Positions 6,817-30,240 of a DNA stretch of 30,240 nt are shown in pieces (within the stretch, counting starts at the first letter, position 1; every line of letters starts with the position of its first letter). The stretch is from a virus. A program made the position numbers and the translations under genes. The stretch is taken from IMG/VR virus record IMGVR_UViG_3300022902_000003, one strand, 5' to 3'. The notes below the pieces were generated by a model that did not search any database, was not told the origin of the DNA, and saw nothing but the letters and a program-made list of their open reading frames with translations.

Positions 6817-7974
6817 TTGGTAGAAAAAAAAGCGCGATATCGCCTGGTATACGATCGTAAAAAGAAAGCTAAAGCAACTGGTAAGGGGTTAATTGAGATA
6901 TATGTATACCATAACCCGAAACAAAAAAAATATATTAGTACCAAAATATGGGTGCATCCAAGCGAGTGGGATACATCGCGGCAATTAGTGAACTCTAAAA
7001 ATGATAAATATATAGCTTATAACCTCAATTTAAAAACCAGTATTAACGATATTGAAACCTACGAACTTAAGCAATTAAACACCGGTAAGCCTTTTACAAT
7101 GGATAAATTAGGCCAGCATATTGCCGCCAAAGGTAATGAGCTTACGTTTACCGCTTTTTGGCATAATACATTAACAAAGGATATGAGCCTCCAGCCGGCT
7201 AGTAAACGCCCACAACGCCGAGCACTGGAATTATTAAAAGCGCATGCCGGCACGGTTAAATTTAGCGATATTAATTACCAGCTTATTAATACATTTGATA
7301 CTTATTTGCGGGGCGAGGGGTATGCCACTGGCACCATTTGGCGGGTACATAAGGATGTTAAAAAATATATTAACCTGGCTATTAATTACGATTATTTGGA
7401 TGTTTCAAAATACCCGTATCGTAAATTTAAAGTGGTTAAAGATCCGCAAAAACATATATACCTTAATTACACCGAGCTCGCGCAAATTGAGGAGGCCGAT
7501 TTATCGGGCGTGCCAAGCATCGAAATTATACGCGATATGTTTTTATTTCAGTGTTACACCGGGTTAAGGTACTCGGATGTACACCGGTTAAATGCCGCCG
7601 ATTTTGAGCAACGCCCCGAGGGTTTAACACTTATATTAACCAGGATGTATAAAGTAAACCGGCGGCTATTTTTAAGGCTTTGGGATATGTTTGATGGTAA
7701 GCCCCAGCGGCTAATTAAAAAATATATTGAAGTTACCCCACCCCCTAAATATCTTTTTGGCCGATATGTTGGCAATTCTGAATTGAACGGCGCATTACTC
7801 ATAATAAAGGATAAATTAGGGGTCCGTAAAAAAATAACCACACATGTAGGGCGCCACACTTTCGGCACATTGTATGCAAAACAAACGGGCTCGATTTTCG
7901 ACGTAATGAAAGCAATGGGTATTAGTAAATTTGAAACGGCGCAAATTTATATCGATCTTAGCGAGGAGCTATAA
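6817..7974 (+). CDS. int: Tyrosine integrase (Bacteroidota-type, Arm-binding N-terminus)
   Basis: 385 aa with a TTG start. The N-terminus is RYRLVYDRKKKAKATGKGLIEIYVY-type. Catalytic signature residues are GLRYSDV (R), HVGRHTFGT (H-x-x-R) and TAQIYIDL (Y). Confidence 0.9.
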   Translation: MVEKKARYRLVYDRKKKAKATGKGLIEIYVYHNPKQKKYISTKIWVHPSEWDTSRQLVNSKNDKYIAYNLNLKTSINDIETYELKQLNTGKPFTMDKLGQHIAAKGNELTFTAFWHNTLTKDMSLQPASKRPQRRALELLKAHAGTVKFSDINYQLINTFDTYLRGEGYATGTIWRVHKDVKKYINLAINYDYLDVSKYPYRKFKVVKDPQKHIYLNYTELAQIEEADLSGVPSIEIIRDMFLFQCYTGLRYSDVHRLNAADFEQRPEGLTLILTRMYKVNRRLFLRLWDMFDGKPQRLIKKYIEVTPPPKYLFGRYVGNSELNGALLIIKDKLGVRKKITTHVGRHTFGTLYAKQTGSIFDVMKAMGISKFETAQIYIDLSEEL

Positions 7975-11176: not shown

Positions 11177-11992
11177 ATGGCAACCCCCACACTAAACGGC
11201 TACGATTTAACGCGCAACTGGTTCGATTTTTGTTTTGAAAACCCCGAACTTATAAAGCCATTACATACGGCCATTTATTGCTTTGCAATTGAACATTGCA
11301 ACCGCCTGGGCTGGAAAACAAAATACGGTTTTCCTTCACAAATGACCATGGACGCCATCGGCGTAAAAAAATACCAAACTTATATAAAGCATTTTAACGA
11401 GTTAATTGAATGGGGGTTTTTTGATCTTATACAAAAATCGAAAAATCAATACTCGGCAAATATAATTAGCCTTGTAAGTGCTATGCCAAAAAACGGCAAA
11501 GCAGTGGGCAAAGCATTGGATAAAGCAATTATAATGCATGGGGCAAAGCATGGGGTAAAGCAAGGTAAAAGCACCGGGCAAAGCAAGGACAGTATAAATA
11601 AACCAGTAAACAATAAACCAATAAACCAACAAACCAATAAACAAGTTACCGAGGCAAGCACGGTATACAATCAAATTAGAAAAATATTTTTAGATGAATT
11701 TAAAGAATTTACAAATACCGCATATTATTTTGAGGGCCGCGATGGGGCCAAAATTAAAAGCATAATAAAAAAAATAAAGCACGCATATAAAGCAAAGAAA
11801 AACCCGGCGCCCACCGATACCCAAATACTCGATGGCTTTCGGCATATACTTAACCGCGCAATGGCCGATGAATGGATAGCCGACCGCCTCACACTTTCAA
11901 TAATTGATAGCCAGTTTAATAAGTTAAAAATAGGTAAAAATGCAAAAAAAGAAAATCTCATTAGCGAAGTACTTGCCGATATTAACGGTTAA
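11177..11992 (+). CDS. Replication organizer / initiator candidate (DnaD- or DUF4373-like N-terminus) with internal iterons
   Basis: 271 aa. The N-terminal winged-helix-like region is NWFDFCFENPELIKPLHTAIYCFAIEHCNRLGW. It follows the DnaA-like gene and contains DNA-level repeat arrays. Confidence 0.5.
   Translation: MATPTLNGYDLTRNWFDFCFENPELIKPLHTAIYCFAIEHCNRLGWKTKYGFPSQMTMDAIGVKKYQTYIKHFNELIEWGFFDLIQKSKNQYSANIISLVSAMPKNGKAVGKALDKAIIMHGAKHGVKQGKSTGQSKDSINKPVNNKPINQQTNKQVTEASTVYNQIRKIFLDEFKEFTNTAYYFEGRDGAKIKSIIKKIKHAYKAKKNPAPTDTQILDGFRHILNRAMADEWIADRLTLSIIDSQFNKLKIGKNAKKENLISEVLADING
11493..11585. repeat. Iteron-like array A: about 8 copies of GG(C/T)AAAGCA at 11-12 bp spacing
   Basis: The AAAGCA ends fall at 11503, 11515, 11527, (11538, degenerate), 11550, 11562, 11573 and 11585. 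The motif falls in all three codon phases. Confidence 0.6.
11598..11644. repeat. Iteron-like array B: 8-bp tandem repeat A(T/C)AAAC(C/A)A, about 6 units
   Basis: Units occur at 11598, 11606 (degenerate), 11613, 11621, 11629 and 11637. The period is not a multiple of 3. An AT-rich stretch follows to about 11730. Confidence 0.6.
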
Positions 11993-12026
11993 TAACGTAA
12001 GTGAATTAACAGCCCGAGCCACAACC

Positions 12027-12554
12027 ATGGCAAAAATGTGGGATAGCGTCGAACCGTCGTTTATACGGATAAAAAAAGAACTTGGCGAAAAGGTTGTAAA
12101 ATCAATTATAGCCACCGAACTAGGCAAAATGGTTGATTTACTAAAGGCCGATATGCAAAAGGAACATGTTTTGTATATGGTAAATTATATCCTCCAGCAT
12201 TATTATAGTTATACAATAAGCGATTTAACCGTATTAACCGATCGCCTGGTAAAAAACAACCCATACGGCAAGCCAATAATGCAAAACTTAATATACGAAC
12301 TCGATCAATATAGTATTGACAAACAAGAGTACGCCGTCGATCAACATATAAAAGAAACCAACCAGCATAAACACAATACTATTAACCAGGATGTAAATAA
12401 TAAGATCCTTAAAATTTACGACAAAATGAAAGCCAAAGCACGCGAGCCACAACCAACCCAAAAACAAAAGGACCAGGCCGCCCAGGATGCCAACACCGAA
12501 AAAATAAAAGAATTACAACGGTTATACCCACAAAGTAAAATGAACCATGGATAA
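12027..12554 (+). CDS. Hypothetical early protein (the ORF opens at 11940; the Met at 12027 avoids overlap)
   Basis: 175-204 aa ORF with a K/Q/E-rich C-terminus. No motif was recognised. Confidence 0.55.
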   Translation: MAKMWDSVEPSFIRIKKELGEKVVKSIIATELGKMVDLLKADMQKEHVLYMVNYILQHYYSYTISDLTVLTDRLVKNNPYGKPIMQNLIYELDQYSIDKQEYAVDQHIKETNQHKHNTINQDVNNKILKIYDKMKAKAREPQPTQKQKDQAAQDANTEKIKELQRLYPQSKMNHG

Positions 12555-12773: not shown

Positions 12774-13106
12774 ATGCCAACATTTCCAAAGTCAAAAAAA
12801 CGCCCATGGGTGCCCGAGCATAAAGCACAAACCGGCCGTAAGGTAACCAACCCATTTTACCATACCACGGCATGGCGTAATTTTCGCAATGCATACATAA
12901 AAGCGCACCCCCTTTGTGTTGATTGTTACCAGCTCGGTAATACCCGCACCGGTAACGTAGTGGACCATATACGGCAAATAAACCCCACCGATGCATATAA
13001 TACAGCCTTTGGCCATTATGGCGAGCCATTGGATGAAAGTAACGTGCAAACACTTTGCACACACCACCACGCAGTTAAATCAGGTAAAGAAACATGGAAA
13101 AAATAA
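12774..13106 (+). CDS. HNH endonuclease (packaging-associated type)
   Basis: 110 aa. CVDCYQLGNTRTGNVVDHI ... LCTHHHAVKS is an HNH zinc-finger pattern. It lies upstream of the P27-type TerS, as in HK97-like cos phages. Confidence 0.85.
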   Translation: MPTFPKSKKRPWVPEHKAQTGRKVTNPFYHTTAWRNFRNAYIKAHPLCVDCYQLGNTRTGNVVDHIRQINPTDAYNTAFGHYGEPLDESNVQTLCTHHHAVKSGKETWKK

Positions 13107-14017
13107 ACACGCCCCCCGATCCATATAAACTAATAAAGAAATTTTTAGCCGAGCGCGACGTCGTAAAGCTAAGTAAACGGCAATACGAGTTTAATATTAA
13201 CCGCTTTGTTACCTGGGCAATGCTCCAGGGTAAAAGCTTTGGCGAGCTCGGTATATCCGACGTACTTAAATATAAACAAAGCTTATTAGATGAAAACAAA
13301 ACCGACTTAACAGTAGCCTCATATATGACCACCTTAAAACTATTTTACGGTTGGTTAGCCATTAACGATATTACCCAGGATCTAACCACCAGCATAAGAA
13401 TAAACAGAACATACCGCACGTTTCGTAAACGCTCGCTAAGTATGGACCAGGCGAACGCACTATTAAAAACATTCGATCTTAAAACCCCAGGCGGTAAACG
13501 CGATTATGCAATAACTAATTTAATGTTACGTAACGGCTTGCGTGAGATTGAAGTTACCCGCATGAATGTGGGCGATATAATCGATTACAACCCCAAGCAA
13601 AAAGCAATAGTAATACAGCGCAAAGGTAAAACCGAGAAGGATGCCACCATACCATTATCAACAAAAGCCGAGGAGGCCATAGTAGATTACTTACTCGCCC
13701 GCCCTGGTAACTGGCAAGATACCGACCCGTTATTTATATCGTACGCTCGCCGAAATAAAAATAAAAGGTTAATACCCCACCATATAAGCGTTATGATTAA
13801 GCGGCATTTAATTGCCTCCGGTATTAACCACCCCATGGTTACGGCTCACAGCTTACGCCATACAGCCGCCACAATATTATTAGCATCCGGCTTAAACGAG
13901 TACGATGTAATGGTATTCATGGGGCACTCAAATTTTGCAACCACACAAATATATACACGACAAAAAGAAAAGGAAATGATTTTTAATAAAAACATAATCA
14001 AAAGCTTAGATTATTAG
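13094..14017 (+). CDS. Second tyrosine recombinase, XerC/XerD-like
   Basis: 307 aa with an N-terminal SAM-like core-binding domain. Catalytic motifs are GLREIEV (R), HSLRHTAAT (H-x-x-R) and GHSNFATTQIYTR (H..Y). Confidence 0.9.
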   Translation: MEKINTPPDPYKLIKKFLAERDVVKLSKRQYEFNINRFVTWAMLQGKSFGELGISDVLKYKQSLLDENKTDLTVASYMTTLKLFYGWLAINDITQDLTTSIRINRTYRTFRKRSLSMDQANALLKTFDLKTPGGKRDYAITNLMLRNGLREIEVTRMNVGDIIDYNPKQKAIVIQRKGKTEKDATIPLSTKAEEAIVDYLLARPGNWQDTDPLFISYARRNKNKRLIPHHISVMIKRHLIASGINHPMVTAHSLRHTAATILLASGLNEYDVMVFMGHSNFATTQIYTRQKEKEMIFNKNIIKSLDY

Positions 14018-14226: not shown

Positions 14227-14754
14227 ATGCCAAAAGGAAGGAAACCAACACCAACGGCTTTAAAAAAATTAAGGGGCACCACTCAACCATGCCGAGAAAA
14301 TAAAAACGAACTGGTTGGCTCGCCACTTATAAAATTACCGTCGGCGCCAAGGTGGTTTAAAAAAAACGCCCGTAAAATTTACCGGGCCAAGGGTAAACAA
14401 TTACAAAATTTAAGCCTTTTAACCATCCTCGATTTAGAGTTATTCATTTCTTTTTGCCGTGAGTATGGTAATTATTTAGATACATCGGCCGAGCTCGATA
14501 ATTATGGCGTTAATAATACGCTCGATTTTCTCGCCAAAATAGATTTTGAGCGTATACCCCTCGAGAAAAAAGACGATGTAATGGAGGCATTAATGTTTGG
14601 CGAGGATCTTATTTTAAAAAGAATACAAAAAATTAATAAAGAAAGTTGGGAGCGGTCCAAAATATTAGCCTCCGAGTTTGGTTTTACACCCAGTGCCCGT
14701 ACAAAAATAGCAATGCCCGCCGGCGATAACGATGGCGATAACGATTTTGATTAA
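14227..14754 (+). CDS. terS: Terminase small subunit, P27 family
   Basis: 175 aa. The N-terminus MPKGRKPTPTALKKLRGT is characteristic of P27-family TerS. The C-terminus is acidic. Confidence 0.85.
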   Translation: MPKGRKPTPTALKKLRGTTQPCRENKNELVGSPLIKLPSAPRWFKKNARKIYRAKGKQLQNLSLLTILDLELFISFCREYGNYLDTSAELDNYGVNNTLDFLAKIDFERIPLEKKDDVMEALMFGEDLILKRIQKINKESWERSKILASEFGFTPSARTKIAMPAGDNDGDNDFD

Positions 14755-14763
14755 TAAAAAATT

Positions 14764-14964
14764 ATGATGAAAGTACAAAATATAAAAACATTAACCCACG
14801 CCAATAGGTTTTGCGAGGGCACTATAAATGATTTTGAAACCGGCATAAGCACAAAGGCCGAAACCATGGCCGCGCTTGGCGAATATACCGCGCATTTAAT
14901 GGGGTTGTTTTGGGAAAACGCCAAAGCTAGAATAAAAGCGAACCCCTCATTATTACTAGATTAA
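14764..14964 (+). CDS. Hypothetical protein, first ORF of the terS-terL insertion
   Basis: 66-aa ORF. No motif was recognised. Confidence 0.5.
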   Translation: MMKVQNIKTLTHANRFCEGTINDFETGISTKAETMAALGEYTAHLMGLFWENAKARIKANPSLLLD

Positions 14965-14987
14965 TTAAACCCTTTAAATATATACAC

Positions 14988-15983
14988 ATGAACATTTTAT
15001 TATTAGCACAAAACAAATTTGACACCACCAGCTTTTACCGCGCCAATGGCGTATTTGGTAATTTAAGTAAACAACTCAAGGGTAATATTTCCATTACCTC
15101 AATGGATCACAAAAATATGAGCCTATCGTGGGCCGATCTTATGTTATACGATGTGGTGGTAATGCAACGCCCCTACGACGATAGTTTTAAACGCCTCGCC
15201 GTTTACATTAAAGATTTAAACATACCGCTTTGGATTGACTACGACGACAACCTCCTAGCCGTACCACCCGACAATAAACAATATGTACTATATTCAGACC
15301 CGGCAATAATCGCAAACGTAACCGGCTTTTTAGCCATGGCCGACGTTGTAACCGTATCAACTCACGGGTTAAAAAAGGCTTTCGATAAATACAACCCCCG
15401 CATTGAAGTGGTGCCAAATGCTTTTAACCAGGATCTATTTAATTACCGCGATATTAAAAAGCGAAATGATACCGTATTATGGCGCGGCTCCGAAACCCAC
15501 CAACTCGATTTAATGACACACACCGTGCAACTAGTTGAGCGCATCGCCGAGTTAAGTAATTGGAAATGGCATTTTTGTGGGTGGTACCCTTGGATGTTAG
15601 CCTCGCCAAATGTTAAAAATTTATACCACTCGCCCGTTGCCGACGTTGTACCCTATCATAAAAATATACACAACGTGGCACCCAAGGCCATGATAGTACC
15701 ACTAGCCAACCATTTATTTAACCATTGCAAAAGTAACATTGCGGCGCTCGAGGGTATATTTGCCGGGGCCGTTTGCATTGTACCCAACTGGGAGGAGTGG
15801 CAAATACCTGGTACTTTAAAGTACGATAACCCCGCCGAATTTAGCCAGCACATACAAGATATTTACCACGGCCGGGTTAAGATAAAAGAAAATAACGATA
15901 CCGCCTGGGAGTACATTAACGACGTTTACCCACTCAATAAAATAAACAAAAAACGTATTGAAATATTAAACTCGTTAGTATGA
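14988..15983 (+). CDS. Putative GT-B fold glycosyltransferase
   Basis: 331 aa. It has two Rossmann-like halves, an acidic WIDYDDNL segment, and a C-terminal KSNIAALEGIFAGAVCIV resembling the GT1/GT4 E-x7-E region by eye. Confidence 0.55.
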   Translation: MNILLLAQNKFDTTSFYRANGVFGNLSKQLKGNISITSMDHKNMSLSWADLMLYDVVVMQRPYDDSFKRLAVYIKDLNIPLWIDYDDNLLAVPPDNKQYVLYSDPAIIANVTGFLAMADVVTVSTHGLKKAFDKYNPRIEVVPNAFNQDLFNYRDIKKRNDTVLWRGSETHQLDLMTHTVQLVERIAELSNWKWHFCGWYPWMLASPNVKNLYHSPVADVVPYHKNIHNVAPKAMIVPLANHLFNHCKSNIAALEGIFAGAVCIVPNWEEWQIPGTLKYDNPAEFSQHIQDIYHGRVKIKENNDTAWEYINDVYPLNKINKKRIEILNSLV

Positions 15984-16615
15984 AAAAATTAACCGGTGCC
16001 GGCGTCGCAAACCAAAGTTACCGCGATGCCGAGCACGCCAAAAGTTTTACATACGATAATTTGGCCGGCGATTTTCCAACAACCAAATTAACATTTAAGG
16101 CCAACCCGTATAATAAAAAAATACTGGCCGCAAAAAATGTACTTGATTTTGGGTGCGGCGTGGGCCGTAATTTGCATTGGGTAATGCACAACACCCGCGC
16201 CCATTATTACGGTATTGATACCAACCCCGATATGCTTAAATACTTTTGGGTGGTTAATAAACACTTACTCAAATTTAAGCGCCGGGTTACCATCGCTAAC
16301 AATTTTGATTTTCTTTTTAACACCATCGATGTGGTATTAATTACGTTTGTATTTCAACATATTGTAAACCGGTTACCACCCGAGGTAATGAACATTAACG
16401 ACATTACCACCGCAATAAAAAGCCACTGCAAAAAAAATGCCGTGTGGCTTATGCTGGAGCACGAAAGCGAGGCACCAGGATGGCAAGCCACTTGGCTCGC
16501 CGCCAACCAAATTACCCCCGATGTATATATAAAAAATTACACAACCCCGGCGCTATGCCACCAACGCGAGTTATGCGATCGAGGCCCTCACAATTTAATA
16601 ATATTTAAAACATGA
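15980..16615 (+). CDS. Class I SAM-dependent methyltransferase
   Basis: 211 aa. Motif I is VLDFGCGVGRN, with motif-II/III-like segments downstream. Its start overlaps the upstream stop (ATGA). Confidence 0.8.
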   Translation: MKKLTGAGVANQSYRDAEHAKSFTYDNLAGDFPTTKLTFKANPYNKKILAAKNVLDFGCGVGRNLHWVMHNTRAHYYGIDTNPDMLKYFWVVNKHLLKFKRRVTIANNFDFLFNTIDVVLITFVFQHIVNRLPPEVMNINDITTAIKSHCKKNAVWLMLEHESEAPGWQATWLAANQITPDVYIKNYTTPALCHQRELCDRGPHNLIIFKT

Positions 16616-17289
16616 ACTTTTTACATAAACCAAAGTTAGGCGATACAATTTACTCGTTACCACTCATTAAACATTTGGGTGGTGGCGTGCTTTATTTAGA
16701 TCCGGTTAGTACACATTTTGAAGGCCAGGCCGAGCACTGGATAAAACAATTTAATTGGCTTATGCCATTAATAAAAGCCCAGCCATATATCGAGGATGTA
16801 AAAATTCACAACGGCGAGCCCATCGATATGGACCTCGATAAATATATGGATACCACCCACCTAACCGCATACGATACCGTTAATATAGTTGATAACCATT
16901 TTATTGCCCAGGGTATAAAGCCACCGCCATACGCGCCGTGGTTAACGTGCAATCGAGAAGGGTTTGAAGTGTATACAATTGTAGCAAACAGCGATAACCA
17001 CCACGACGATAAAGTGGATTACACCACTATTTTAAAGGATATAAATTTTTTATTTGTGGGCACCTTCGCCGAAATTACAGCCTTTAAAAGCCGCACCGGT
17101 ATAACAGATTTTTTATACCAGGTGCCCGGCGACGCCTTGCACCTTGCCGAGATAATTAACGCGTGCACGCATTTTATTGGTAACCAAAGCTTACCCCTGG
17201 CCATTGCTTTGGGCCTTGGTAAAAAGTGTTACGTTGAACAATCGCCATTATATCCTAATTGTATAATGGGAAATTATAACCGACTTTAA
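16612..17289 (+). CDS. Compact GT9 (heptosyltransferase)-like glycosyltransferase
   Basis: 225 aa. The N-terminal KLGDTIYSLPLIKHL and C-terminal HFIGNQSLPLAIALGLGKKCYV resemble the GT9 motifs (GD..l..P.l..Lk and GNDSGPMHLAAALG.P) by eye. It is ATGA-coupled to the methyltransferase. Confidence 0.55.
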   Translation: MNFLHKPKLGDTIYSLPLIKHLGGGVLYLDPVSTHFEGQAEHWIKQFNWLMPLIKAQPYIEDVKIHNGEPIDMDLDKYMDTTHLTAYDTVNIVDNHFIAQGIKPPPYAPWLTCNREGFEVYTIVANSDNHHDDKVDYTTILKDINFLFVGTFAEITAFKSRTGITDFLYQVPGDALHLAEIINACTHFIGNQSLPLAIALGLGKKCYVEQSPLYPNCIMGNYNRL

Positions 17290-17299
17290 CATTATAGAT

Positions 17300-17533
17300 A
17301 TGGAAAATATTGATACATCTTATGGCACCGGCCGCCGGGTAATGGCCGAGGAAATGATCGCATATTGCGAAAAGAAAATAACCGAAATAAACGCCCACCC
17401 CAAAAGCCCACACATAGCCATACACAATAAACGCGTTGGGTTAATTACCGCGTATGGTAATATTATCGACCGGCTCAATATTAAGTTAAAAAGGATGGCC
17501 GCCAAACTCGAAACCCTAAACCCTAAACAATAA
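17300..17533 (+). CDS. Hypothetical protein
   Basis: 77-aa ORF. No motif was recognised. Confidence 0.5.
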   Translation: MENIDTSYGTGRRVMAEEMIAYCEKKITEINAHPKSPHIAIHNKRVGLITAYGNIIDRLNIKLKRMAAKLETLNPKQ

Positions 17534-17536
17534 CCA

Positions 17537-17683
17537 ATGAACCACTCTAAACTAGCAAACAAATACCTTACCGGTTTAACTGGTATCGAAATTGGTGGCG
17601 CCGCCCCCCAACCCAACAACTCAGATAAAGAGTTTACCACTCAGAACCATTTTTACAACCAACCCCACAACCAAAAACCGTAA
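17537..17683 (+). pseudogene. 48-aa ORF, possible N-terminal remnant of a second methyltransferase
   Basis: MNHSKLANKYLTGLTGIEIGGAAPQPN... The L.G..GIEIGG segment resembles the start of some glycan-cluster SAM methyltransferases. The rest is a Q/P/N-rich tail. This is a weak call made by eye. Confidence 0.25.
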
Positions 17684-17688
17684 CCCCC

Positions 17689-19266
17689 TTGCCAAACCAA
17701 CACAAATACCACTTTGATAAATTCGCCGCCGATCGCGCCGTAACCTGGATTGAGAAATATATTACCCACGTTAAAGGCGAGCACCAGGGTAAACCCCTTA
17801 TACTCGAGCCCTGGCAAAAAAATGATATTGTACGCCCCTTATTTGGTTGGAAGGATAACATTACAAAGCTCCGAAAGTACCGCACCGTATACGTAGAAAT
17901 ACCACGTAAAAATGCAAAAAGTACGTTAGCCGGTGGCATTGGTTTATACTTGTTAATGAACGATGGCGAACCCGGTGCCGAAATATACAGCGCCGCCGCC
18001 GAGCGTGGCCAGGCTGGTATAATATTCGATATTGCAAAGCGTATGGTAACCCAGCGTAAAGCCCTGGCCTCGCGTGCAACCCCGTACCGTAATTCAATAA
18101 CCTACGAAAAAACCGGCTCATTTTATAAAGCCATAAGTGCCGACGCCCATACCAAACACGGGTTTAATGCCCACGGTATTGTATTCGATGAATTTCACAC
18201 ACAAAAAACCCGCGCGCTTTACGATGTATTAACCACATCCGTAGGCTCGCGCCGCCAACCCGTAATACTTTTATTAACCACCGCCGGTAACGATCGTACC
18301 TCAATATGTTACGAACTCCATGAATACGCCCGCAAGGTCCTGGAGGGTATAATAATCGACGATACATTTTTACCCGTAATATACTCGGCCGATAAAGAAC
18401 TCGATATTTTTGCCGCCACCACCTGGAAACTCGCCAACCCAGGGTATGGCTCAATAGTTAAAACCGATTACATACGGGCCGCCGCCAACAAAGTAAAAAA
18501 CAACCCAAACAACGAAAACGCATTTAGGCAATTACATTTAAACCAGTGGACCAGCTCCATATACTCATGGGTGCCCGATCATACCTGGATGGCGTGCAAC
18601 CTGGGCGAAATAAACCCCGACGATTTTAAGGGGTGCGATGTTGTGCTCGGCCTCGACCTTGCCAGCACCGACGATACAACCAGCCTCGCCATAATATTTT
18701 TAGATGGCCTTACACCAATAGGTATTATGCCATACATTTGGGTACCCGAGGAAATGATCGAGCGGCGTAAAGCTCGCGGCGATATGCTATACTTTAATTG
18801 GCAAAGCCAGGGCGTACTACATGTTACCCCTGGCAACGTAACCGATTACCGCGTAATTGAAAAAACCATACTCGATATAAACGAGCAATTTAATATTGTA
18901 CGCATTGGGTTTGATAAATGGAACTCCAGCCAATTAATAATAAACCTGGCCGATAATATCGATGGCGAAATATTCGATAAAGTCGAAATGAATATAGGAA
19001 CCCTAAGCGAACCCACCAAGCGCTTTTACAAACTCATAAAAAACAAAGCAATAAACCACGGCGGGCACCCCGTATTACGCTGGATGTTGAGCAACGTAAT
19101 GATATACCAGGATACAAACGAAAACATACGCCCCAGTAAAAAATCGAGCACCGATAAAATTGATGGCATAATGGCCGTAATTGTAGCACTTACCGCCCTT
19201 TGGAGCCGCCCACTGGAGGAGGATATTAATAAACGATTTGCCACCGAAGGCTTTGCAACAAGTTAG
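17689..19266 (+). CDS. terL: Terminase large subunit
   Basis: 525 aa. The TTG at 17689 is the only in-frame start upstream of the conserved N-terminus (an in-frame TAA lies at 17626). It has a Walker A-like PRKNAKST, a Walker B-like GIVFDEFH and a C-terminal nuclease-like region. Confidence 0.9.
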   Translation: MPNQHKYHFDKFAADRAVTWIEKYITHVKGEHQGKPLILEPWQKNDIVRPLFGWKDNITKLRKYRTVYVEIPRKNAKSTLAGGIGLYLLMNDGEPGAEIYSAAAERGQAGIIFDIAKRMVTQRKALASRATPYRNSITYEKTGSFYKAISADAHTKHGFNAHGIVFDEFHTQKTRALYDVLTTSVGSRRQPVILLLTTAGNDRTSICYELHEYARKVLEGIIIDDTFLPVIYSADKELDIFAATTWKLANPGYGSIVKTDYIRAAANKVKNNPNNENAFRQLHLNQWTSSIYSWVPDHTWMACNLGEINPDDFKGCDVVLGLDLASTDDTTSLAIIFLDGLTPIGIMPYIWVPEEMIERRKARGDMLYFNWQSQGVLHVTPGNVTDYRVIEKTILDINEQFNIVRIGFDKWNSSQLIINLADNIDGEIFDKVEMNIGTLSEPTKRFYKLIKNKAINHGGHPVLRWMLSNVMIYQDTNENIRPSKKSSTDKIDGIMAVIVALTALWSRPLEEDINKRFATEGFATS

Positions 19267-20063: not shown

Positions 20064-20090
20064 CACTAGCGCGCGAATGTTTCGCGTGCT
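20064..20090 (+). repeat. Conserved GC-rich hairpin element, copy 1
   Basis: CACTAGCGCGCGAATGTTTCGCGTGCT. The stem is GCGCGCGAA / TTCGCGTGC (one G-U pair) with a TGT loop. Confidence 0.75.
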
Positions 20091-22205: not shown

Positions 22206-23630
22206 ATGAAAACACGTAAAATTATTTTAGGACTAGTTACATTGTTATTTTTAACAATGTTTGCGGGTACGCTCGACGCGAACCCAGCCGAGGGAACACT
22301 CGCGGTAACAACTGCATTTGCCTTGGTGGTTGGTGGTATTAAATCATCAAAAGAATTAAAGGAAAGTAAGGCCGGCATTTGGGAACGCGCCCAGGCTATC
22401 CACGCCCTCGCTAAAGAGGAAAAACGCGATTTAACCGAAGATCAAAACACCGAGTACGATGGTTTAATTGCTGAAATGCGCGAGCTCGATAAAGAAATTA
22501 AACGAGCCGAGGAGCATGAAGCTCGCACGCTCGAAATGGCGAACACTCACATTAACAGTGTAACCAAAAAGCAAGAACAAAAAGAAGTACGTAGTTACTC
22601 GTTTGTTAAAGCCATCCGCTCAAAAGCCGAAGGTAAAGCACTCGAAGGGCTCGAGGCCGAAATGGACCAGGAAGCTAAACGCGAAGCCACAACAAACGGC
22701 GTTGCCATAACTGGTATTGGTATACCATCGATTGTATTAAGCGAAAAAAGAGATTTAACCGAGGGTACCGATAACCAGGGTGGTTATTTAAGCCCCACCG
22801 ATACGGTTGGTTTTATTGAGGCACTACGCGCTAAAATGTTGGTTACTCAATATGGCGCCCAGGTAATGACCGGCTTAATGGGTAATATATCCATGCCAAC
22901 ACAAGCCACCGCCGCCAGCGCGGCATGGGAGGGCGAAGTCGACGCCGGTAGCGAACAATCACAAACATTTGGCGAGCTTTCACTAACACCGAACCGCCTT
23001 GGTTGTTATACTGAAATAAGCAAACAACTAATTATACAAAGCTCAATCGATGTTGAAAACTTTGTGCGTAACGATTTAATTATGGCCATACAATTGGCTA
23101 TTGATTTGGCCGCGATTAACGGCTCGGGTTCCAGCGATCAACCAACCGGTATATTAAACACATCCGGCATTGGTAGCGTTGCGGGTGGTACAAACGGACT
23201 TGCCCCAACTTTCGGCAACCTGGTTAACCTCGAGCGTGAGGTATCCGTAGATAATGCCGATATTGGTAACCTTGCATTTATGACAAACCCAAAGGTACGT
23301 GCGAAACTAAAACAAACCGAACTCGACAGCGGCTCCGGTTTATTTGTATGGCCATCGGCAAGCGATGAATTACTCGGCTACAAAGCTGGAGTTACAACCC
23401 AGGTGCCTAGCACACTGGATAAAGGTACAAGTACCGGCGTTTGTAGCGCAATAATTTTCGGTAATTGGAACGACTTAATTGTAGCACAATGGGGCGGCCT
23501 GGATATTGTTGTAGATCCTTACAGCCTTGCAACTACTAATATGTTGCGCGTTGTTGCAAATAGCTGGTGGGATGTTGGCGTACGCCACGCCCAAAGCTTT
23601 GCCGCAATGGCCGACGCCTTAACTACTTAA
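22206..23630 (+). CDS. Major capsid protein, HK97 family, with delta-domain and an unusual hydrophobic N-terminal leader
   Basis: 474 aa. It has a coiled-coil delta-like region (KELKESKAGIWERAQAIHALAKEEKRDLTEDQ...) and core motifs GGYLSPTD and AAINGSGSSDQPTGILN. Confidence 0.9.
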   Translation: MKTRKIILGLVTLLFLTMFAGTLDANPAEGTLAVTTAFALVVGGIKSSKELKESKAGIWERAQAIHALAKEEKRDLTEDQNTEYDGLIAEMRELDKEIKRAEEHEARTLEMANTHINSVTKKQEQKEVRSYSFVKAIRSKAEGKALEGLEAEMDQEAKREATTNGVAITGIGIPSIVLSEKRDLTEGTDNQGGYLSPTDTVGFIEALRAKMLVTQYGAQVMTGLMGNISMPTQATAASAAWEGEVDAGSEQSQTFGELSLTPNRLGCYTEISKQLIIQSSIDVENFVRNDLIMAIQLAIDLAAINGSGSSDQPTGILNTSGIGSVAGGTNGLAPTFGNLVNLEREVSVDNADIGNLAFMTNPKVRAKLKQTELDSGSGLFVWPSASDELLGYKAGVTTQVPSTLDKGTSTGVCSAIIFGNWNDLIVAQWGGLDIVVDPYSLATTNMLRVVANSWWDVGVRHAQSFAAMADALTT

Positions 23631-23728: not shown

Positions 23729-23755
23729 CACTGGCGCGCGAATGTTTCGCGTGCT
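23729..23755 (+). repeat. Conserved GC-rich hairpin element, copy 2
   Basis: CACTGGCGCGCGAATGTTTCGCGTGCT, about 100 nt after the capsid stop and 15 nt before the next ATG. It is preceded by a GC-rich segment at 23670..23705. Confidence 0.75.
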
Positions 23756-23770
23756 TTAACCAACAAACCG

Positions 23771-24085
23771 ATGAAAACAAAAACCGCTTTATTTATTAAA
23801 AACGCCATGGGTATCGGTATGGCATATTTTGAAGGCGACACCGCCGAGCTACCTATAAATCGTTTTAACGATCTTAAAGAACTGGGTTACGTAACCGAGC
23901 CAACTACTCAACCCCCGGCCCACACAACCACAACCCCAATACCAAAAGATATACCAGGTTACAAGGCGATTGTAGCCGCTGGCTTTACATCGCTAGCCGA
24001 CGTTAAAGCCGTGCCCGACTTAACCGAAATAAACGGCATTGGCAAAGTACTCGCCGCTCAAATTGTTGAGTATTTTAAAATATAG
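23771..24085 (+). CDS. Small head-module protein with a T/P-rich linker and a C-terminal helix-hairpin-helix motif
   Basis: 104 aa. The linker is TEPTTQPPAHTTTTPIP and the HhH-like segment is LTEINGIGKVLAAQIVEYF. Confidence 0.55.
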   Translation: MKTKTALFIKNAMGIGMAYFEGDTAELPINRFNDLKELGYVTEPTTQPPAHTTTTPIPKDIPGYKAIVAAGFTSLADVKAVPDLTEINGIGKVLAAQIVEYFKI

Positions 24086-24109
24086 CATTTAAAATTTAAC
24101 ATTTAAAAA

Positions 24110-24670
24110 GTGGCATACAAATTACATACAGCTCCCACATCCGAACCGGTAACGGCAAGTGAGGCAAAAGCGCATTTACAAGTTAGCACAAGTGATGACG
24201 ATACCCTCATAGCGGCACTAATAAAAGCGGCTCGCATGCATGTTGAAAGTTACACCAACCGCCAACTCATGCCAGCCACCTGGGAGCTTTATTTAGATGA
24301 ATTTGCGAGCAATGTAATACGCTTGGAAAAATCGCCCAGCGTTGCCATTTCGCATATTAGGTATACCGATACCGACGGTAATGCCGCCACGGCCACCGCC
24401 GGTAATTACGCCATCGACATAGCCACCGAACCCGCCCGCCTGGCACCAACTTACGACGCCGCCTGGCCAAGTACTCGAGCAATTGAAAACGCCGTAATTG
24501 TAAAATTTACCGCGGGGTATGGTAGTGCCGCCCTGGTACCCGATGCCATTAAGTCGGCTATCCTTTTAATCGTCGGTTTTTTATATGAGAACCGCGGCGA
24601 CGAAGGCCACCGTACAATGCCCAAATCGATAAATAATTTATTAGATCCTTACCAAGTAATACAATTTTGA
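24110..24670 (+). CDS. Head-tail connector protein (gp6-like)
   Basis: 186 aa with a GTG start. The pattern is VTASEAKAHLQVSTSDDDTLIAALIKAARMHVESYTNRQL ... AGYG ... VPDAIKSAILLIVGFLYENRGDE. Confidence 0.8.
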   Translation: MAYKLHTAPTSEPVTASEAKAHLQVSTSDDDTLIAALIKAARMHVESYTNRQLMPATWELYLDEFASNVIRLEKSPSVAISHIRYTDTDGNAATATAGNYAIDIATEPARLAPTYDAAWPSTRAIENAVIVKFTAGYGSAALVPDAIKSAILLIVGFLYENRGDEGHRTMPKSINNLLDPYQVIQF

Positions 24671-26011: not shown

Positions 26012-26206
26012 ATGGCACGCAAAAAAAAGATAACAACCAAAGACGGCGCAACCGGTGGCGTAAAAGTTACATTAACTAAAGATTACGTTTACCCCAATGG
26101 TATGATATTACGCGCGGGTAAATCGCCAATTGTAGCCGGTTATTTTGCCGACGAACTAAAGGCCGGCGGGTACCTCGATAAACAACAATCCAACCCAAAA
26201 GACTAG
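26012..26206 (+). CDS. Hypothetical small protein upstream of the major tail gene
   Basis: 64-aa ORF. Its TAG stop lies inside hairpin copy 3. Confidence 0.45.
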   Translation: MARKKKITTKDGATGGVKVTLTKDYVYPNGMILRAGKSPIVAGYFADELKAGGYLDKQQSNPKD

Positions 26207-26226
26207 CGCGCGAATGTTTCGCGGGT
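26201..26226 (+). repeat. Conserved GC-rich hairpin element, copy 3
   Basis: GACTAGCGCGCGAATGTTTCGCGGGT. It has the same core as copies 1 and 2, but a shorter stem because of GGG in place of TGC. Confidence 0.7.
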
Positions 26227-26271
26227 TTAACATTAAACACATTAAACACTAATCAATAAAATAACAAGATC

Positions 26272-26682
26272 ATGGCAACAACTGGAACAATAAACGCAAC
26301 CCTCCTCGCTATTTGGGTGGGTGCCGTTAAAATGGATGTGCAACTAAATTGCGATTTGTCAATTTCACACGACCCCCGCGTATCAATAAATAAAGATTCA
26401 GCCGGATGGGAGGGCACACGCTCGGGTAAAAAGAGTTGGGAAATGAGCGGCGAAAGCGAAATGCAATACGATGCCACCCAAGGTATGGAGGAACTTTTTG
26501 ATGCATTAATAGCCGGCACCGAGCTAACATTACAATTTAGTACCGAGGTAACTGGCGACGTACGCCTAAGTGGCGTGGCCCAGGTTACAAAACTCGATAT
26601 AAGCGCCGGAGTTGAGGAGGATGTAAATTTTTCATACGCTTTTAAAGGTAATGGAGCAATTGCAAAAACAACTGTTTCGTAA
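26272..26682 (+). CDS. Major tail (tube) protein, phi13/TP901-1-like
   Basis: 136 aa. Size, position and pattern (DSAGWEGTRSGKKSWEMSGESEM...FSYAFKGNGAI) match the Phage_tail_2-type tube protein by eye. Confidence 0.75.
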   Translation: MATTGTINATLLAIWVGAVKMDVQLNCDLSISHDPRVSINKDSAGWEGTRSGKKSWEMSGESEMQYDATQGMEELFDALIAGTELTLQFSTEVTGDVRLSGVAQVTKLDISAGVEEDVNFSYAFKGNGAIAKTTVS

Positions 26683-27134: not shown

Positions 27135-27436
27135 TAAGCTGGGCGTGGATTGAGCGGCAAGCGCTTGGCGCGATGGGTATGGCGCTTAAAGATTACGAGG
27201 ATATTACCCTCGCCGCGTTCTTAAATAAGCTGGCCGGCTTTTACGAGCTGGAGCAACAAAAGCAAAAAAATGATTGGCAAAGGTTTGATTACCTGGCGTG
27301 GATGATTGAAATTAACAACCCATATATTAAAGCCAATATGAAGGCAAAAACATTAACAGAATTTCAAAACCGAAAAAAGAAAAAAACAATAAAAAGAAAA
27401 TTAACTAAAAAACAATTTGAGGACTTTATCGAATAA
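26766..27436 (+). CDS. Tail assembly chaperone -1 frameshift fusion product (gpGT analogue)
   Basis: The downstream ORF is in the -1 frame relative to 26766..27134, and there is no stop between the slippery site and 27173. This is the conserved siphovirus arrangement. Confidence 0.7.
27125..27131 (+). promoter_or_regulatory. -1 programmed ribosomal frameshift slippery heptamer A-AAA-AAG
   Basis: The zero-frame reading is GAT GAA AAA AAG TAA. The -1 frame is open from here (KKVISWAWIERQALGAMGMALK...) into ORF 27173..27436. Confidence 0.8.
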
Positions 27437-27472
27437 TTTAATATTTAGAATTTAAAATTTAAAATTTCAATT

Positions 27473-29529: not shown

Positions 29530-30240
29530 ATGGCAAGTAATATACGATATAGGGCAGACTGGACCAGCGAGGATGGTTATTTATATCGTATTGATTTAAT
29601 TGATATTGATTATAACGATGTAACCAATAGCCTCGAAATTGGTATGGATACCTTTGACGGTTTTACACTCGATTACTCGGGCGAAAACCAAGGGCGGTAT
29701 TCGCCAATATTAGCCAGCGAGTGCGTAATAAATTGCGTGGCCGAAGATGCCGCGTTTGAAACCTTAATCGACGATATAATTGGCGCCCAGGAACAAAGGT
29801 TTTTTGTAGTTATATATTTACATGATGGCGCGAGTTATGAATTATTTTGGTGCGGCCTGGTATTACAAGGGCTAATAAATATTGAAGATACCGCATTGCC
29901 GTACCCATTCCAATTACATGCCGCCGATGGCCTTGGCCGGTTAAAAGATATTGATTACCCAGCCACCGGGGCGCTGGCTCAAACTTTTATTACGTATTTA
30001 GTTACCATACTCGGCCAAACCGATTTACTCCAGTTTTGGGATACATACGATGTATTTTTAAAAACCGCCGTCGACTGGTACGAAGATTCACATTTCGCGG
30101 TATCGCCACCAGCTTATACCCTCGACCCGTTAATAGTTAGCCGTATTTTAAACGATGCATTTATGGAGCTCGACGAGTACGACGATGCCGTGGCAATTTC
30201 GTGCTACGATGTACTTGTACAAGTTTGCACCCGTTGGCAT
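29530..30240 (+). CDS. 5' part of the minor tail / distal tail-host specificity protein gene (continues at 1..1681)
   Basis: ATG at 29530 (MASNIRYRADWTSEDGYLYRIDLIDIDYNDV...). The frame is open to the end of the window and in phase with 2..1681 across the junction. Confidence 0.8.
   Translation, partial: MASNIRYRADWTSEDGYLYRIDLIDIDYNDVTNSLEIGMDTFDGFTLDYSGENQGRYSPILASECVINCVAEDAAFETLIDDIIGAQEQRFFVVIYLHDGASYELFWCGLVLQGLINIEDTALPYPFQLHAADGLGRLKDIDYPATGALAQTFITYLVTILGQTDLLQFWDTYDVFLKTAVDWYEDSHFAVSPPAYTLDPLIVSRILNDAFMELDEYDDAVAISCYDVLVQVCTRWH

Follow-up and report, generated by a model that had tools for sequence, protein, structure and literature searches.

A compact cassette of predicted glycosyltransferase (GT) and methyltransferase (MT) genes was located between the terminase genes terS and terL of a small temperate phage. 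The window, which is the whole stretch of DNA analyzed, comprised 30,240 nucleotides, and the genome was complete at 30,113 bp. Among the explanations considered, the best reading of the cassette is a virion glycosylation module, and we hold this reading tentatively.

According to this reading, the cassette would act as a late-expressed cytoplasmic module that glycosylates a structural protein of the phage, and it would form a single transcription unit with terS and terL. ORF3 would transfer a sugar from a host nucleotide-sugar to a hydroxyl of a virion protein. ORF5 would add a second sugar or serve as the acceptor-binding partner of ORF3, comparable to GtfB for GtfA, and the SAM-dependent MT would afterwards O-methylate the sugar. 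Capsid, tail tube or fibre subunits would thereby receive a short methylated glycan before or during assembly. In this scheme, the identity of the acceptor and of the sugars, the sequence of the steps and the time of expression are inferred. The acceptors put forward in the first-pass annotation, namely the fibre repeats and the TTTTP linker, are speculative candidates.

The terS–terL interval

The cassette is co-oriented, compositionally native and without room for a promoter or terminator of its own. As shown in Table 1, six tightly packed ORFs occupied the 2.9-kb gap. When the ORF coordinates were recomputed, all of those given in the first-pass annotation held, and the two ATGA overlaps (at 15980 and 16612) and the VLDFGCGVGRN motif were present as it had described them. 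All six ORFs exist, but the 48-aa ORF is a methyltransferase remnant rather than an independent gene. The remaining gaps from terS to terL were all 3–23 nt. The GC content of the cassette was 0.419 compared to 0.418 for the genome, and the codon usage of its three enzyme genes correlated with the rest of the genome at 0.80–0.85, within the range of the other genes (0.56–0.93), in agreement with the earlier remark on codon style. Promoter-like sites (24 versus 23.9 expected) and terminator-like sites (13 versus 13.0 expected) were not enriched, and there was no Bacteroides-type promoter on the + strand. Transmembrane segments were found in none of the six products, whose hydrophobic maxima corresponded to Rossmann core strands. 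The 66-aa and 77-aa ORFs had no family match in Pfam, PHROG and the other collections searched and no homologue across the fetched loci.

The statement that the cassette does not lie next to int overlooked the Xer-sized recombinase upstream of terS. The order HNH–recombinase–terS was kept in two other loci (L034 and L070).

Table 1. Features of the terS–terL interval and of the two recombinase genes.
Feature	Coordinates	Strand	Evidence	Remark
Canonical integrase	6817–7974			Lysogeny module with divergent regulators, 7 kb from cassette
Second tyrosine recombinase, Xer-sized	13094–14017	+	Pfam Phage_integrase 4.5e-30	Ends 210 nt upstream of terS
terS, small terminase subunit	14227–14754	+	Pfam Terminase_4 3e-10; PHROG 83 8e-26	Upstream edge of insertion
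66-aa orphan ORF	14764–14964	+		Starts 9 nt past terS
ORF3, soluble GT-B glycosyltransferase, GT4-like (predicted), 331 aa	14988–15983	+	AF2 model, Foldseek, PHROG 7162	
Class I SAM-dependent methyltransferase, 211 aa	15980–16615	+	Pfam profiles	ATGA-coupled at both ends
ORF5, compact GT-B protein, GT9/heptosyltransferase-like fold (predicted), 225 aa	16612–17289	+	AF2 model, Foldseek	
77-aa orphan ORF	17300–17533	+		No family assignment
48-aa remnant, second methyltransferase family (c28 type)	17537–17683	+	c28 profile match	
terL, large terminase subunit, TTG start	17689–19266	+	Pfam TerL_ATPase 3e-27, TerL_nuclease 4e-37; PHROG 9 8e-159	Downstream edge of insertion

Predicted enzymes of the cassette

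The AF2 model of ORF3 (pLDDT 96.8) predicted a GT-B fold of the GT4 type. Foldseek against the PDB gave 235 matches at E ≤ 1e-3, the best of which were GT4 enzymes (E 1e-10, TMq 0.63–0.73), at an identity of only 10–15%. These structural neighbors included PglA and WbnH, which build O-antigen and protein glycans, as well as GtfA and GtfC. In BFVD, the best matches were phage “group 1” GTs (TM 0.8–0.88), and PHROG 7162 “glycosyltransferase” was matched at 3e-28. ORF3 shares the GT-B fold with GT4 enzymes such as PglA, MshA, BshA and GtfA but differs from them in its profile matches. At E ≤ 1 it had no Pfam match, including PF00534, PF13692 and PF13439 (Glycos_transf_1 and others), and the best 120 of its 674 relatives carried no precomputed Pfam domain and no match to Glycos_transf_1 or Glyco_trans_1_4. 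The family is thus large, mostly viral and unannotated in Pfam. In the EX7E-like stretch, whose correspondence was judged by eye, K248-S249-N250 and E255 were invariant, and the second Glu (E255) alone was kept. Similar to the GtfA/GtfB pair that glycosylates serine-rich-repeat proteins, ORF3 nearly always had a second GT-B-like protein as its partner; relatives of ORF3 and ORF5 were adjacent in 48 of the 49 ORF5-seeded loci that held both.

ORF5 is predicted to be a compact GT-B protein that is GT9-like by fold only. Its model had a pLDDT of 91.4, and the best 24 PDB matches were all GT9 enzymes (3tov, WaaC, WaaF and the autotransporter heptosyltransferase TibC), with E values of 4e-7 to 3e-4 and TMq of 0.5–0.65. 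On the other hand, sequence searches returned nothing in Pfam (including PF01075), PHROG, NCBIfam or the PDB, and the profile-profile comparison of the family with bona fide GT9 domains by hhalign was not significant (E 0.14). The label “GT9-like” therefore stands for the fold and fails at the level of PF01075 and the profile-profile test. GT9 enzymes use ADP-heptose as donor and have a catalytic N-terminal Asp (Asp13 in WaaC). In the ORF5 family, the N-terminal G10-D11 was invariant, and the C-terminal motif GNQSLPLAIA was lined up with VDTATLHLAAA of GT9 in the same non-significant comparison. With 225 aa, ORF5 resembles most stand-alone members of its family (~220–260 aa), in contrast to the ~320–390 aa of the GT9 enzymes, and it lies below the ~320–350 aa expected of a full-length two-domain GT9. 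This family is also large (3,004 representative clusters), mostly viral and without a Pfam model. ORF5-like domains were found fused to GT4, GT2, GT9, GT25 and TylF-type sugar O-methyltransferase domains, and in fusion proteins that contain a bona fide GT9 domain the two lie side by side as separate domains.

The product of 15980–16615 is a class I SAM-dependent MT of the small-molecule type and presumably a sugar O-methyltransferase. The profiles Methyltransf_12, 25, 11, 23 and 31 matched with E values from 6e-10 to 1e-6 and exceeded their curated cut-offs (40.1 bits against 30 for Methyltransf_12, 37.8 against 27 for Methyltransf_25, and 37.1 against 21.2 for Methyltransf_11), and VLDFGCGVGRN represents the glycine-rich motif I. 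No DNA-methylase family was matched. Residues 2–30 of the 48-aa ORF aligned to positions 5–33 of the 189-position c28 methyltransferase profile (E 2.6e-7). The ORF is therefore what is left of the N-terminus of another MT, from a different family than the cassette MT, and it retains only the region of the SAM-binding motif I. An intact c28-type gene followed the GT9-like gene in one locus (L002) and was truncated in four (L001, L003, L004, and L169). MTs have been gained, swapped and lost. Overall, the fold assignments of the first-pass annotation were borne out by AlphaFold and Foldseek for the GTs and by Pfam for the MT.

Relatives and their gene neighborhoods

In the terL relatives with a visible terS (L198, L200, and L203–L208), terS abutted terL, as the first-pass annotation had expected, and a GT was absent from 35 of 35 terL-seeded loci. 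Since the related terL lineages have a contiguous and GT-free terS–terL–portal block, the cassette is an accessory insertion.

In the 79 similarity-seeded IMG/VR loci with ORF3 relatives, a packaging or head gene was located within 3 kb in 71 loci, and in 62 the relative had a gene for terminase, portal or capsid as its immediate neighbor. This adjacency exceeds the 10% expected for a random gene, a figure that is a rough estimate. The neighborhoods covered three non-homologous terminase types and included the orders terL–GT–portal, portal–GT–MT–capsid (lineage D of the ORF3 family), SPP1 portal–GT–GT2–GT2–DegT–epimerase–gp7/MuF minor head protein, GT–GT9-like–terS–terL (Terminase_6) and, in L220, GT9-like–MT–terL–portal. 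The GT islands often contained sugar-nucleotide genes as well, namely a DegT aminotransferase, an SDR epimerase/dehydratase, an RmlC-like isomerase and a radical SAM protein. These genes, together with the fusions of ORF5-like domains, fit the assembly of a multi-sugar methylated glycan.

Only 8 pattern matches were found among 185,579 species genomes of cellular organisms. Seven of the eight came from short contigs of MAGs, and phage genes were visible on four of these (L169, L170, L175, and L176). The family is therefore almost virus-restricted, and its near absence from bacterial genomes indicates that the cassette did not originate in polysaccharide loci of the host, where routine occurrence would have counted against a virion target.

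A close architectural, non-homologous precedent is the mycobacteriophage Corndog. Virion glycosylation has been attributed to Corndog gp35–38 and Che8 gp110 (Freeman et al., 2023, as cited in PMC12363180 and PMC12619734), and Corndog gp38 was described as essential for capsid glycosylation (PMC12363180). The Corndog gene order is terS, terL, gp33, portal gp34, MT gp35, GTs gp36–38, gp39, gp40 and capsid gp41. The claim that no equivalent had been described at this locus overlooked this MT with three GTs in the portal–capsid interval of the same module. Both phages combine a SAM-dependent MT with several soluble, co-oriented and translationally coupled GTs inside the packaging/head operon, and one branch of the ORF3 family, lineage D, shares the portal–GT–MT–capsid layout. 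However, the cassette proteins showed no homology to gp35–38 (all phmmer and hmmsearch E > 0.2), so the analogy is positional only. By Pfam, gp35 is a TylF-type MT, gp36 had no match, and gp37 and gp38 are GT-A-like by weak matches (GT2-like at E 1e-4, which misses the curated cut-off, and GT25 at 3e-5), compared to two GT-B proteins and a generic class I MT here. Moreover, the insertion lies between portal and capsid in Corndog and between terS and terL here, the present host is not an actinobacterium, and glycosylation is published for Corndog and putative here.

Candidate targets and significance

The main competitor of virion glycosylation, which we regard as unlikely, is remodelling of the host envelope, in which LPS core, capsule or another lipid-linked glycan would be altered at the cytoplasmic face during lysogeny or late infection. 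A possible benefit would be that superinfecting phage are excluded or that progeny are kept off debris. The structural neighbors of both GTs agree with this, since those of ORF5 are mostly LPS heptosyltransferases (WaaC and WaaF) and those of ORF3 include PglA and WbnH. LPS-like sugar pathway genes occur in some islands, one source labels a relative “O-antigen biosynthesis protein”, and an attP in the 210-nt gap between recombinase and terS, if any, would place the cassette near a prophage end, a typical site of conversion genes. However, the cassette lacks a membrane component, flippase, polymerase or bactoprenol-linked GT, and an independent promoter, terminator and intergenic space are all missing. 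The canonical lysogeny module is distant, and the families are nearly absent from bacterial genomes and also present in large, apparently lytic phages of 100–170 kb. Gtr-type conversion modules comprise membrane components (flippase, bactoprenol GT and GT-C) and are expressed autonomously near int/att. The cassette differs from GtrABC-like modules in having neither transmembrane segments nor a separate promoter or terminator signal; a second recombinase does lie nearby.

DNA hypermodification, in which one or both GTs would glycosylate a modified base before packaging and thereby evade restriction, is in our view improbable. T-even alpha- and beta-glucosyltransferases and TET-linked GTs glycosylate modified bases of phage DNA. 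Like the T4 enzymes, which act on 5hmC, the cassette GTs are phage-encoded soluble proteins with a predicted GT-B fold, and a cyanophage “DNA alpha-GT” was the 11th structural match of ORF3 in BFVD. Some neighborhoods also point to DNA. The GT pair follows a helicase and a gp32-like SSB in lineage E, phAPEC8 encodes four GTs next to primase/helicase, Dam and PolA, and a GT9-like gene with an MT follows PolA and a MazZ-like gene in L218. In L216, the closest relative (83% identity), a C5 DNA methylase directly follows the GT with an overlapping start, and lineages A and F carry DNA methylases in the same slot. The proposal of a late, virion-directed target is favored by the recurrence of ORF3 relatives beside terminase, portal and capsid genes in unrelated lineages and weakened by relatives of both GTs beside replication genes and DNA methylases. 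Against a DNA target, no Pfam or PHROG match to a hydroxymethylase, TET/JBP or C5-methylase was detected among the ORFs scanned in the complete 30.1-kb genome, several of which are unannotated. The MT is of the small-molecule type, and the profiles of the two GT families found no match in a-gt or b-gt of T4, with which there is no homology. In addition, the T4 enzymes are encoded beside the hydroxymethylase gene 42 in a neighborhood of early replication genes, whereas the cassette lies in the packaging operon. We know of no description of DegT, dehydratase and isomerase pathways for phage DNA glycans; capsid and fibril glycans of giant viruses use pathways of this type.

Slightly less probable still is that the cassette is accessory cargo in a permissive slot near the terminase which modifies a host protein, signalling nucleotide or small molecule, for example in counter-defence: elsewhere this slot holds DNA methylases or, beside a GT9-like gene and an MT, an Acb2/Tad1-type anti-defence sponge, “GT4-conflict” of Pfam occurs in 5 of 56 ORF5-domain fusions, the position of the cassette shifts even between related phages and its MTs come and go, but no known defence-related partner was found in the window, sugar-nucleotide biosynthesis and multi-GT islands point to glycan building rather than capping of a single metabolite, and adjacency to head genes recurs in unrelated lineages above the estimated random expectation.

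For virion glycosylation itself, the terminase adjacency may be due to a hot spot of insertion rather than to function, because the terS region is a general accessory slot. The capsid C-terminus “DALTT” was conserved in the nearest GT-positive group, which has no close GT-negative comparator, so that phylogeny confounds this observation. The Thr/Ser-rich C-termini of the major capsid protein (...DALTT) and tail tube (...KTTVS) were statistically not distinctive. Chloroviruses and giant viruses offer a parallel. Their virus-encoded sets, including the fibril glycosylation clusters of giant viruses, combine cytoplasmic GTs with a sugar methyltransferase, sometimes with their own amino- or deoxy-sugar pathways, and target virion proteins; A064R of PBCV-1 is a GT-GT-methyltransferase that acts on the capsid glycan. 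Both groups infect eukaryotes, and their enzymes belong to other families.

More tentatively than for the present cassette, we propose that the GT4-like and truncated GT9-like pair may be central to a so far unrecognised system of virion glycosylation. Such a system would be widespread, occurring across numerous unrelated lineages of tailed phages that infect Gram-negative and Bacteroidota hosts; it would cover hundreds to thousands of sequence clusters and would have evolved independently of the mycobacteriophage system. To our knowledge, phage virion glycosylation has so far been demonstrated only in mycobacteriophages, in which the glycans shield particles from antibodies. If the target were instead DNA, in a phage free of hydroxymethylase, this would be even more surprising. 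If the virion proposal is correct, two large viral protein families left unannotated in current profile databases would gain a function, and GT genes within the terminase–portal–capsid block would provide a simple genomic marker. It would also bear on the immunogenicity and pharmacokinetics of therapeutic phages, on mucus adherence and virion stability, and on the reading of cryo-EM densities. In that case, glycan coats would no longer be a peculiarity of actinophages but would be widespread among phages of the environment and the gut, and they would be a general, convergently evolved feature of virions, including those of phages of Bacteroidota and other Gram-negative bacteria.

Layout of the cassette and of the window genome

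The interval from the terS stop (14754) to the terL start (17689) contains six ORFs, all on the + strand and all at the positions proposed in the first-pass annotation. The three large genes, ORF3 (14988-15983), a methyltransferase gene (15980-16615) and ORF5 (16612-17289), overlap by ATGA at 15980 and 16612, and all remaining junctions from terS to terL measure 3-23 nt. The composition and codon usage of the cassette are indistinguishable from the rest of the genome: its GC content was 0.419 compared to 0.418 for the genome, and the codon correlation of its genes (0.80-0.85) fell inside the 0.56-0.93 spanned by the genome. A scan of the cassette for sigma-70 promoters and terminators gave sites at chance level without enrichment, and no Bacteroides-type promoter pattern was found on the + strand within or before it.

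At 30,113 bp, the phage genome in the window is complete and circular or permuted; an exact 127-nt direct repeat at the window ends (1-127 and 30114-30240) has the usual form of an assembler's k-mer overlap. The gene order runs from tail and fibre genes through lysis genes, a canonical integrase with divergent regulators, a small replication region, HNH and a second tyrosine recombinase to terS, the cassette, terL, portal, protease, capsid, connector, tail tube and tape measure. The host is probably a member of Bacteroidota, and a nucleotide search with the cassette region returned no match in a collection of 50,697 phage records. The second recombinase could serve as a second integration system, in dimer resolution or in cos-region recombination. 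Its block (271-aa protein, 204-aa protein, HNH, recombinase, terS; the first two are unannotated ORFs at 11177-12554) is kept in further phages, and in phages with this HNH-recombinase-terS block a glycosyltransferase (GT) lies several kb upstream of terS.

Several other features of the genome were observed. Copies of a GC-rich, conserved hairpin, GCGCGCGAAUGUUUCGCGUGC (-15 kcal/mol, with z of about -4 and -3 in two cases), stand at 20068-20090, 23733-23755 and 26205-26227. All three fall in late-operon intergenic gaps, directly ahead of the portal, 23771-protein and tail-tube genes, and may act in RNA stability, processing or attenuation. An AT-rich direct repeat of 51 nt (24063-24113 and 27426-27476; the copies share 78% identity) runs as far as the GTG with which the head-tail adaptor and tape-measure genes start, and may be a translation-initiation or regulatory element common to both. 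Signal-peptide-like hydrophobic N-termini (e.g., MKTLTIIILLLFTTVYTFGQ), which are odd for virion proteins assembled in the cytoplasm, were seen in a 133-aa protein (1698-2099), a 780-aa fibre-like protein (2113-4455) and the capsid ORF (22206-23630); the last exceeds its relatives by about 63 aa.

Enzyme families of the cassette

Sequence and profile searches of Pfam, NCBIfam and PDB were empty for both ORF3 and ORF5, and the two were resolved by structure prediction alone. The sole match of ORF3 was PHROG 7162 "glycosyltransferase" (3e-28), and its identity to phAPEC8-like GTs was about 25% by tblastn. ORF5 had no match in Pfam, PHROGs, NCBIfam, PDB sequences or cultured phage genomes. AlphaFold models were built from homologue alignments. 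The ORF3 model (pLDDT 96.8) was nearest to the GT4-type transferases ManT, PglA, MshA, BshA and GtfA/C (E ~1e-10, TMq 0.63-0.73), and also near uncharacterised "group 1" GTs from uncultured phages (TM 0.8-0.88). ORF3 is a GT-B enzyme closest to the GT4 type. For the ORF5 model (pLDDT 91.4), the top 24 PDB structure matches were GT9 throughout, including Veillonella GT9, WaaC, WaaF and TibC. The middle gene, the only one that sequence methods recognised, encodes a class I SAM methyltransferase, which scores above the cut-offs of Methyltransf_12, 25, 11, 23 and 31 and has VLDFGCGVGRN as motif I. The GT-B, methyltransferase and GT9-like folds called in the first-pass annotation were therefore correct. 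Family membership is weaker than fold, as neither GT matches its Pfam family.

With hhalign, the ORF5-family profile aligned to established GT9 domains at E 0.14, which is not significant, and paired its conserved GNQSLPLAIA motif with the GT9 motif VDTATLHLAAA. ORF5-like domains also occur inside proteins of 500-1,100 aa, fused to GT4/GT1, GT2, GT9, GT25, DUF5672 and methyltransferase domains, the last including the sugar O-methyltransferase family TylF. The fusion protein P0181 and about 55 others from the same alignment (A3) each carry one or two ORF5-like domains, with GH130 among the partner domains. A sequence bridge from ORF5 to GT9 through such fusions was rejected, since the PF01075 match of P0181 is a separate domain and the hhalign result was non-significant.

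The 48-aa ORF at 17537-17683 was ruled out as a real gene. It retains SAM motif I only, and is what remains of the N-terminus of a methyltransferase from another, unrelated family (c28 type). In L002, a relative of 62% identity, an intact gene of this family follows the GT9-like gene; in four other loci (L001, L003, L004 and L169) it is truncated. The methyltransferases of the cassette are repeatedly swapped and lost.

Distribution and genomic position

The ORF3 family forms 674 or more clusters at 90% identity, with no Pfam domain in the best 120 of the relatives listed, and the ORF5 family 3,004 representative clusters at 50% identity. IMG/VR held 282 ORF3-related and 177 ORF5-related stretches. 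Genes were called in all fetched loci and their products clustered. Where an ORF5-seeded locus had both genes, they were adjacent and in the order ORF3-ORF5 in 48 of 49 cases; the window is atypical, with a methyltransferase gene between them. The ORF3-ORF5 pair is widespread in environmental phages.

In 185,579 species genomes, a pattern scan picked up no more than 8 ORF3 relatives. Seven were on short MAG contigs, four of them with phage genes (L169, L170, L175 and L176), and the nearest were in bins assigned to Bacteroidales or elsewhere in Bacteroidota. The eighth, a distant relative on the Thermoplasmatales chromosome CP070712 (29% identity to ORF3), was the sole copy that the scan found in a long cellular replicon. 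There (L174, 9959-12123) the GT is followed by c28-type and TylF-type methyltransferases amid unrelated riboflavin and patatin genes. The first-pass annotation had named as its refuting case a cassette routine in host polysaccharide loci, which these 8 matches did not show. An origin from such a locus was ruled out, with one of the matches chromosomal and in an unrelated context.

The comparison set for gene order was 35 loci seeded with the window terL (34-54% identity). None contained a GT. In these loci terL lies directly next to the portal gene, as does terS to terL in each case where terS is visible, in line with the earlier expectation that the two are normally adjacent. Because these relatives lack a GT and keep terS, terL and portal contiguous, the cassette is an accessory insertion. 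Among 79 loci seeded by ORF3 similarity, a packaging/head gene lay within 3 kb in 71 and directly adjacent in 62. This association is not universal among ORF3/ORF5 loci, as shown in the table.

Gene order around cassette relatives, and positions of the second recombinase (lineages A-F, gene-order groups of fetched loci; MT, methyltransferase; GT9-like, ORF5-type gene; semicolons set off the GT-bearing segment)
Group or locus	Position	Gene order or setting
Lineage A (relatives of the window phage)		HNH-terS-terL; GT; small protein-portal-protease-capsid
Lineages B and C		terS-terL (Terminase_3 or divergent terL)-SPP1 portal; GT-GT2-(GIY-YIG)-GT2-DegT-epimerase...; gp7/MuF-like minor head protein
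Lineage D		terL-portal; GT-MT; ...capsid
Lineage E		pair after SbcC, RNR, DnaB and gp32-like SSB; then further GT9-like paralogues and sugar genes
Lineage F		DNA methylase...; GT-GT9-like; terS-like-terL (Terminase_6)
L220		GT9-like-MT-Acb2/Tad1; terL-portal-MuF-protease-capsid
L218		GT9-like-MT after PolA
phAPEC8		four GTs beside primase/helicase, Dam and PolA
L001-L004		pair after 800-bp non-coding stretch, then small ORFs
L216 (closest relative; ORF3 homologue 83% identity)	964-2663	terS, GT, C5 cytosine DNA methylase with overlapping start
Second tyrosine recombinase, Xer-sized	window 13094-14017	between HNH and terS, overlapping HNH stop
Recombinase counterparts	L034 14480-15475; L070 5415-6401; L075 9890-10798	other phages

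Two of these contexts have further features. In a marine phage (L218, 1672-5068; also L219), a MazZ-like dGTP diphosphohydrolase domain gene, PolA, a GT9-like gene (49% identity to ORF5) and a methyltransferase gene stand in a row, and this may be a modified-base (Z-genome-like) phage with a GT9-like and methyltransferase unit lacking an ORF3-type GT. The contigs of the 62%-identity cassette relatives (L001-L004, 1-895) also carry a reverse transcriptase (RVT_1) upstream of lysis genes, possibly a diversity-generating retroelement.

Proposed target of the cassette and relation to known systems

According to an mSystems survey (PMC12363180), Che8 gp110 and Corndog gp38 are essential capsid-glycosylation GTs, and mycobacteriophage glycans are described at the C-termini of capsid and tail-tube subunits (PMC12619734). 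The annotated Corndog genome has terS (gp31), terL (gp32), gp33, portal (gp34), a methyltransferase (gp35), GTs (gp36-38), gp39, gp40 and capsid (gp41). An essential capsid-glycosylation GT (gp38), with the methyltransferase and GTs beside it, thus sits in the module that holds the window cassette. Both blocks combine one methyltransferase with several coupled GTs in the packaging/head operon. However, the proteins are without sequence relation. The Corndog methyltransferase is of TylF type and that of the window of generic SAM type, and the Corndog GTs have weak Pfam matches (gp37 GT2-like, E 1e-4, under the curated cut-off; gp38 GT25-like; gp36 none), whereas the window block uses two GT-B enzymes.

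Judged from genomic context, the best-supported mechanism, which we favour tentatively, is that a virion protein is glycosylated late and in the cytoplasm. The first step would fall to ORF3; ORF5 would either lengthen the glycan or serve as a partner that binds the acceptor, and the methyltransferase would cap the sugar. Candidate acceptors are the capsid protein (22206-23630), the putative tail tube (26272-26682), the 23771 protein and the fibre (2113-4455), the last two being those put forward in the first-pass annotation. The one further lead, the hydroxyl-residue C-termini of the capsid (...DALTT) and putative tail tube (...KTTVS), is not statistically distinctive, and neither protein was distinctive in C-terminal Thr/Ser content across all window proteins. 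A search for acceptors among capsid C-termini in phages with and without the GT was rejected as confounded by phylogeny. Against the synteny argument stand the replication-side contexts and the evidence that the surroundings of terS take up accessory genes in general.

Remodelling of host envelope glycans is an unlikely alternative to virion glycosylation; no membrane segment was found in any cassette product. DNA hypermodification seems quite improbable. No hydroxymethylase, TET/JBP or DNA C5-methylase was found among the window ORFs scanned. In favour of this reading, however, the slot after the GT holds a C5 cytosine DNA methylase in L216, as against a generic SAM methyltransferase in the window. 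The T4 DNA glucosyltransferases are unrelated to the ORF3 and ORF5 families and lie among early replication genes, b-gt adjoining dCMP hydroxymethylase. Isoelectric point was uninformative as a proxy for DNA binding (T4 a-gt, pI 6.1). Counter-defence or another target is the least probable reading.

A methyltransferase and GT block within a packaging/head operon is already known from Corndog; what is new is such a block built from non-homologous, unannotated GT-B families and carried by a phage with a probable Bacteroidota host. The virion-glycosylation hypothesis is open to direct testing, and the breadth of the families and their convergent architecture are notable to specialists.
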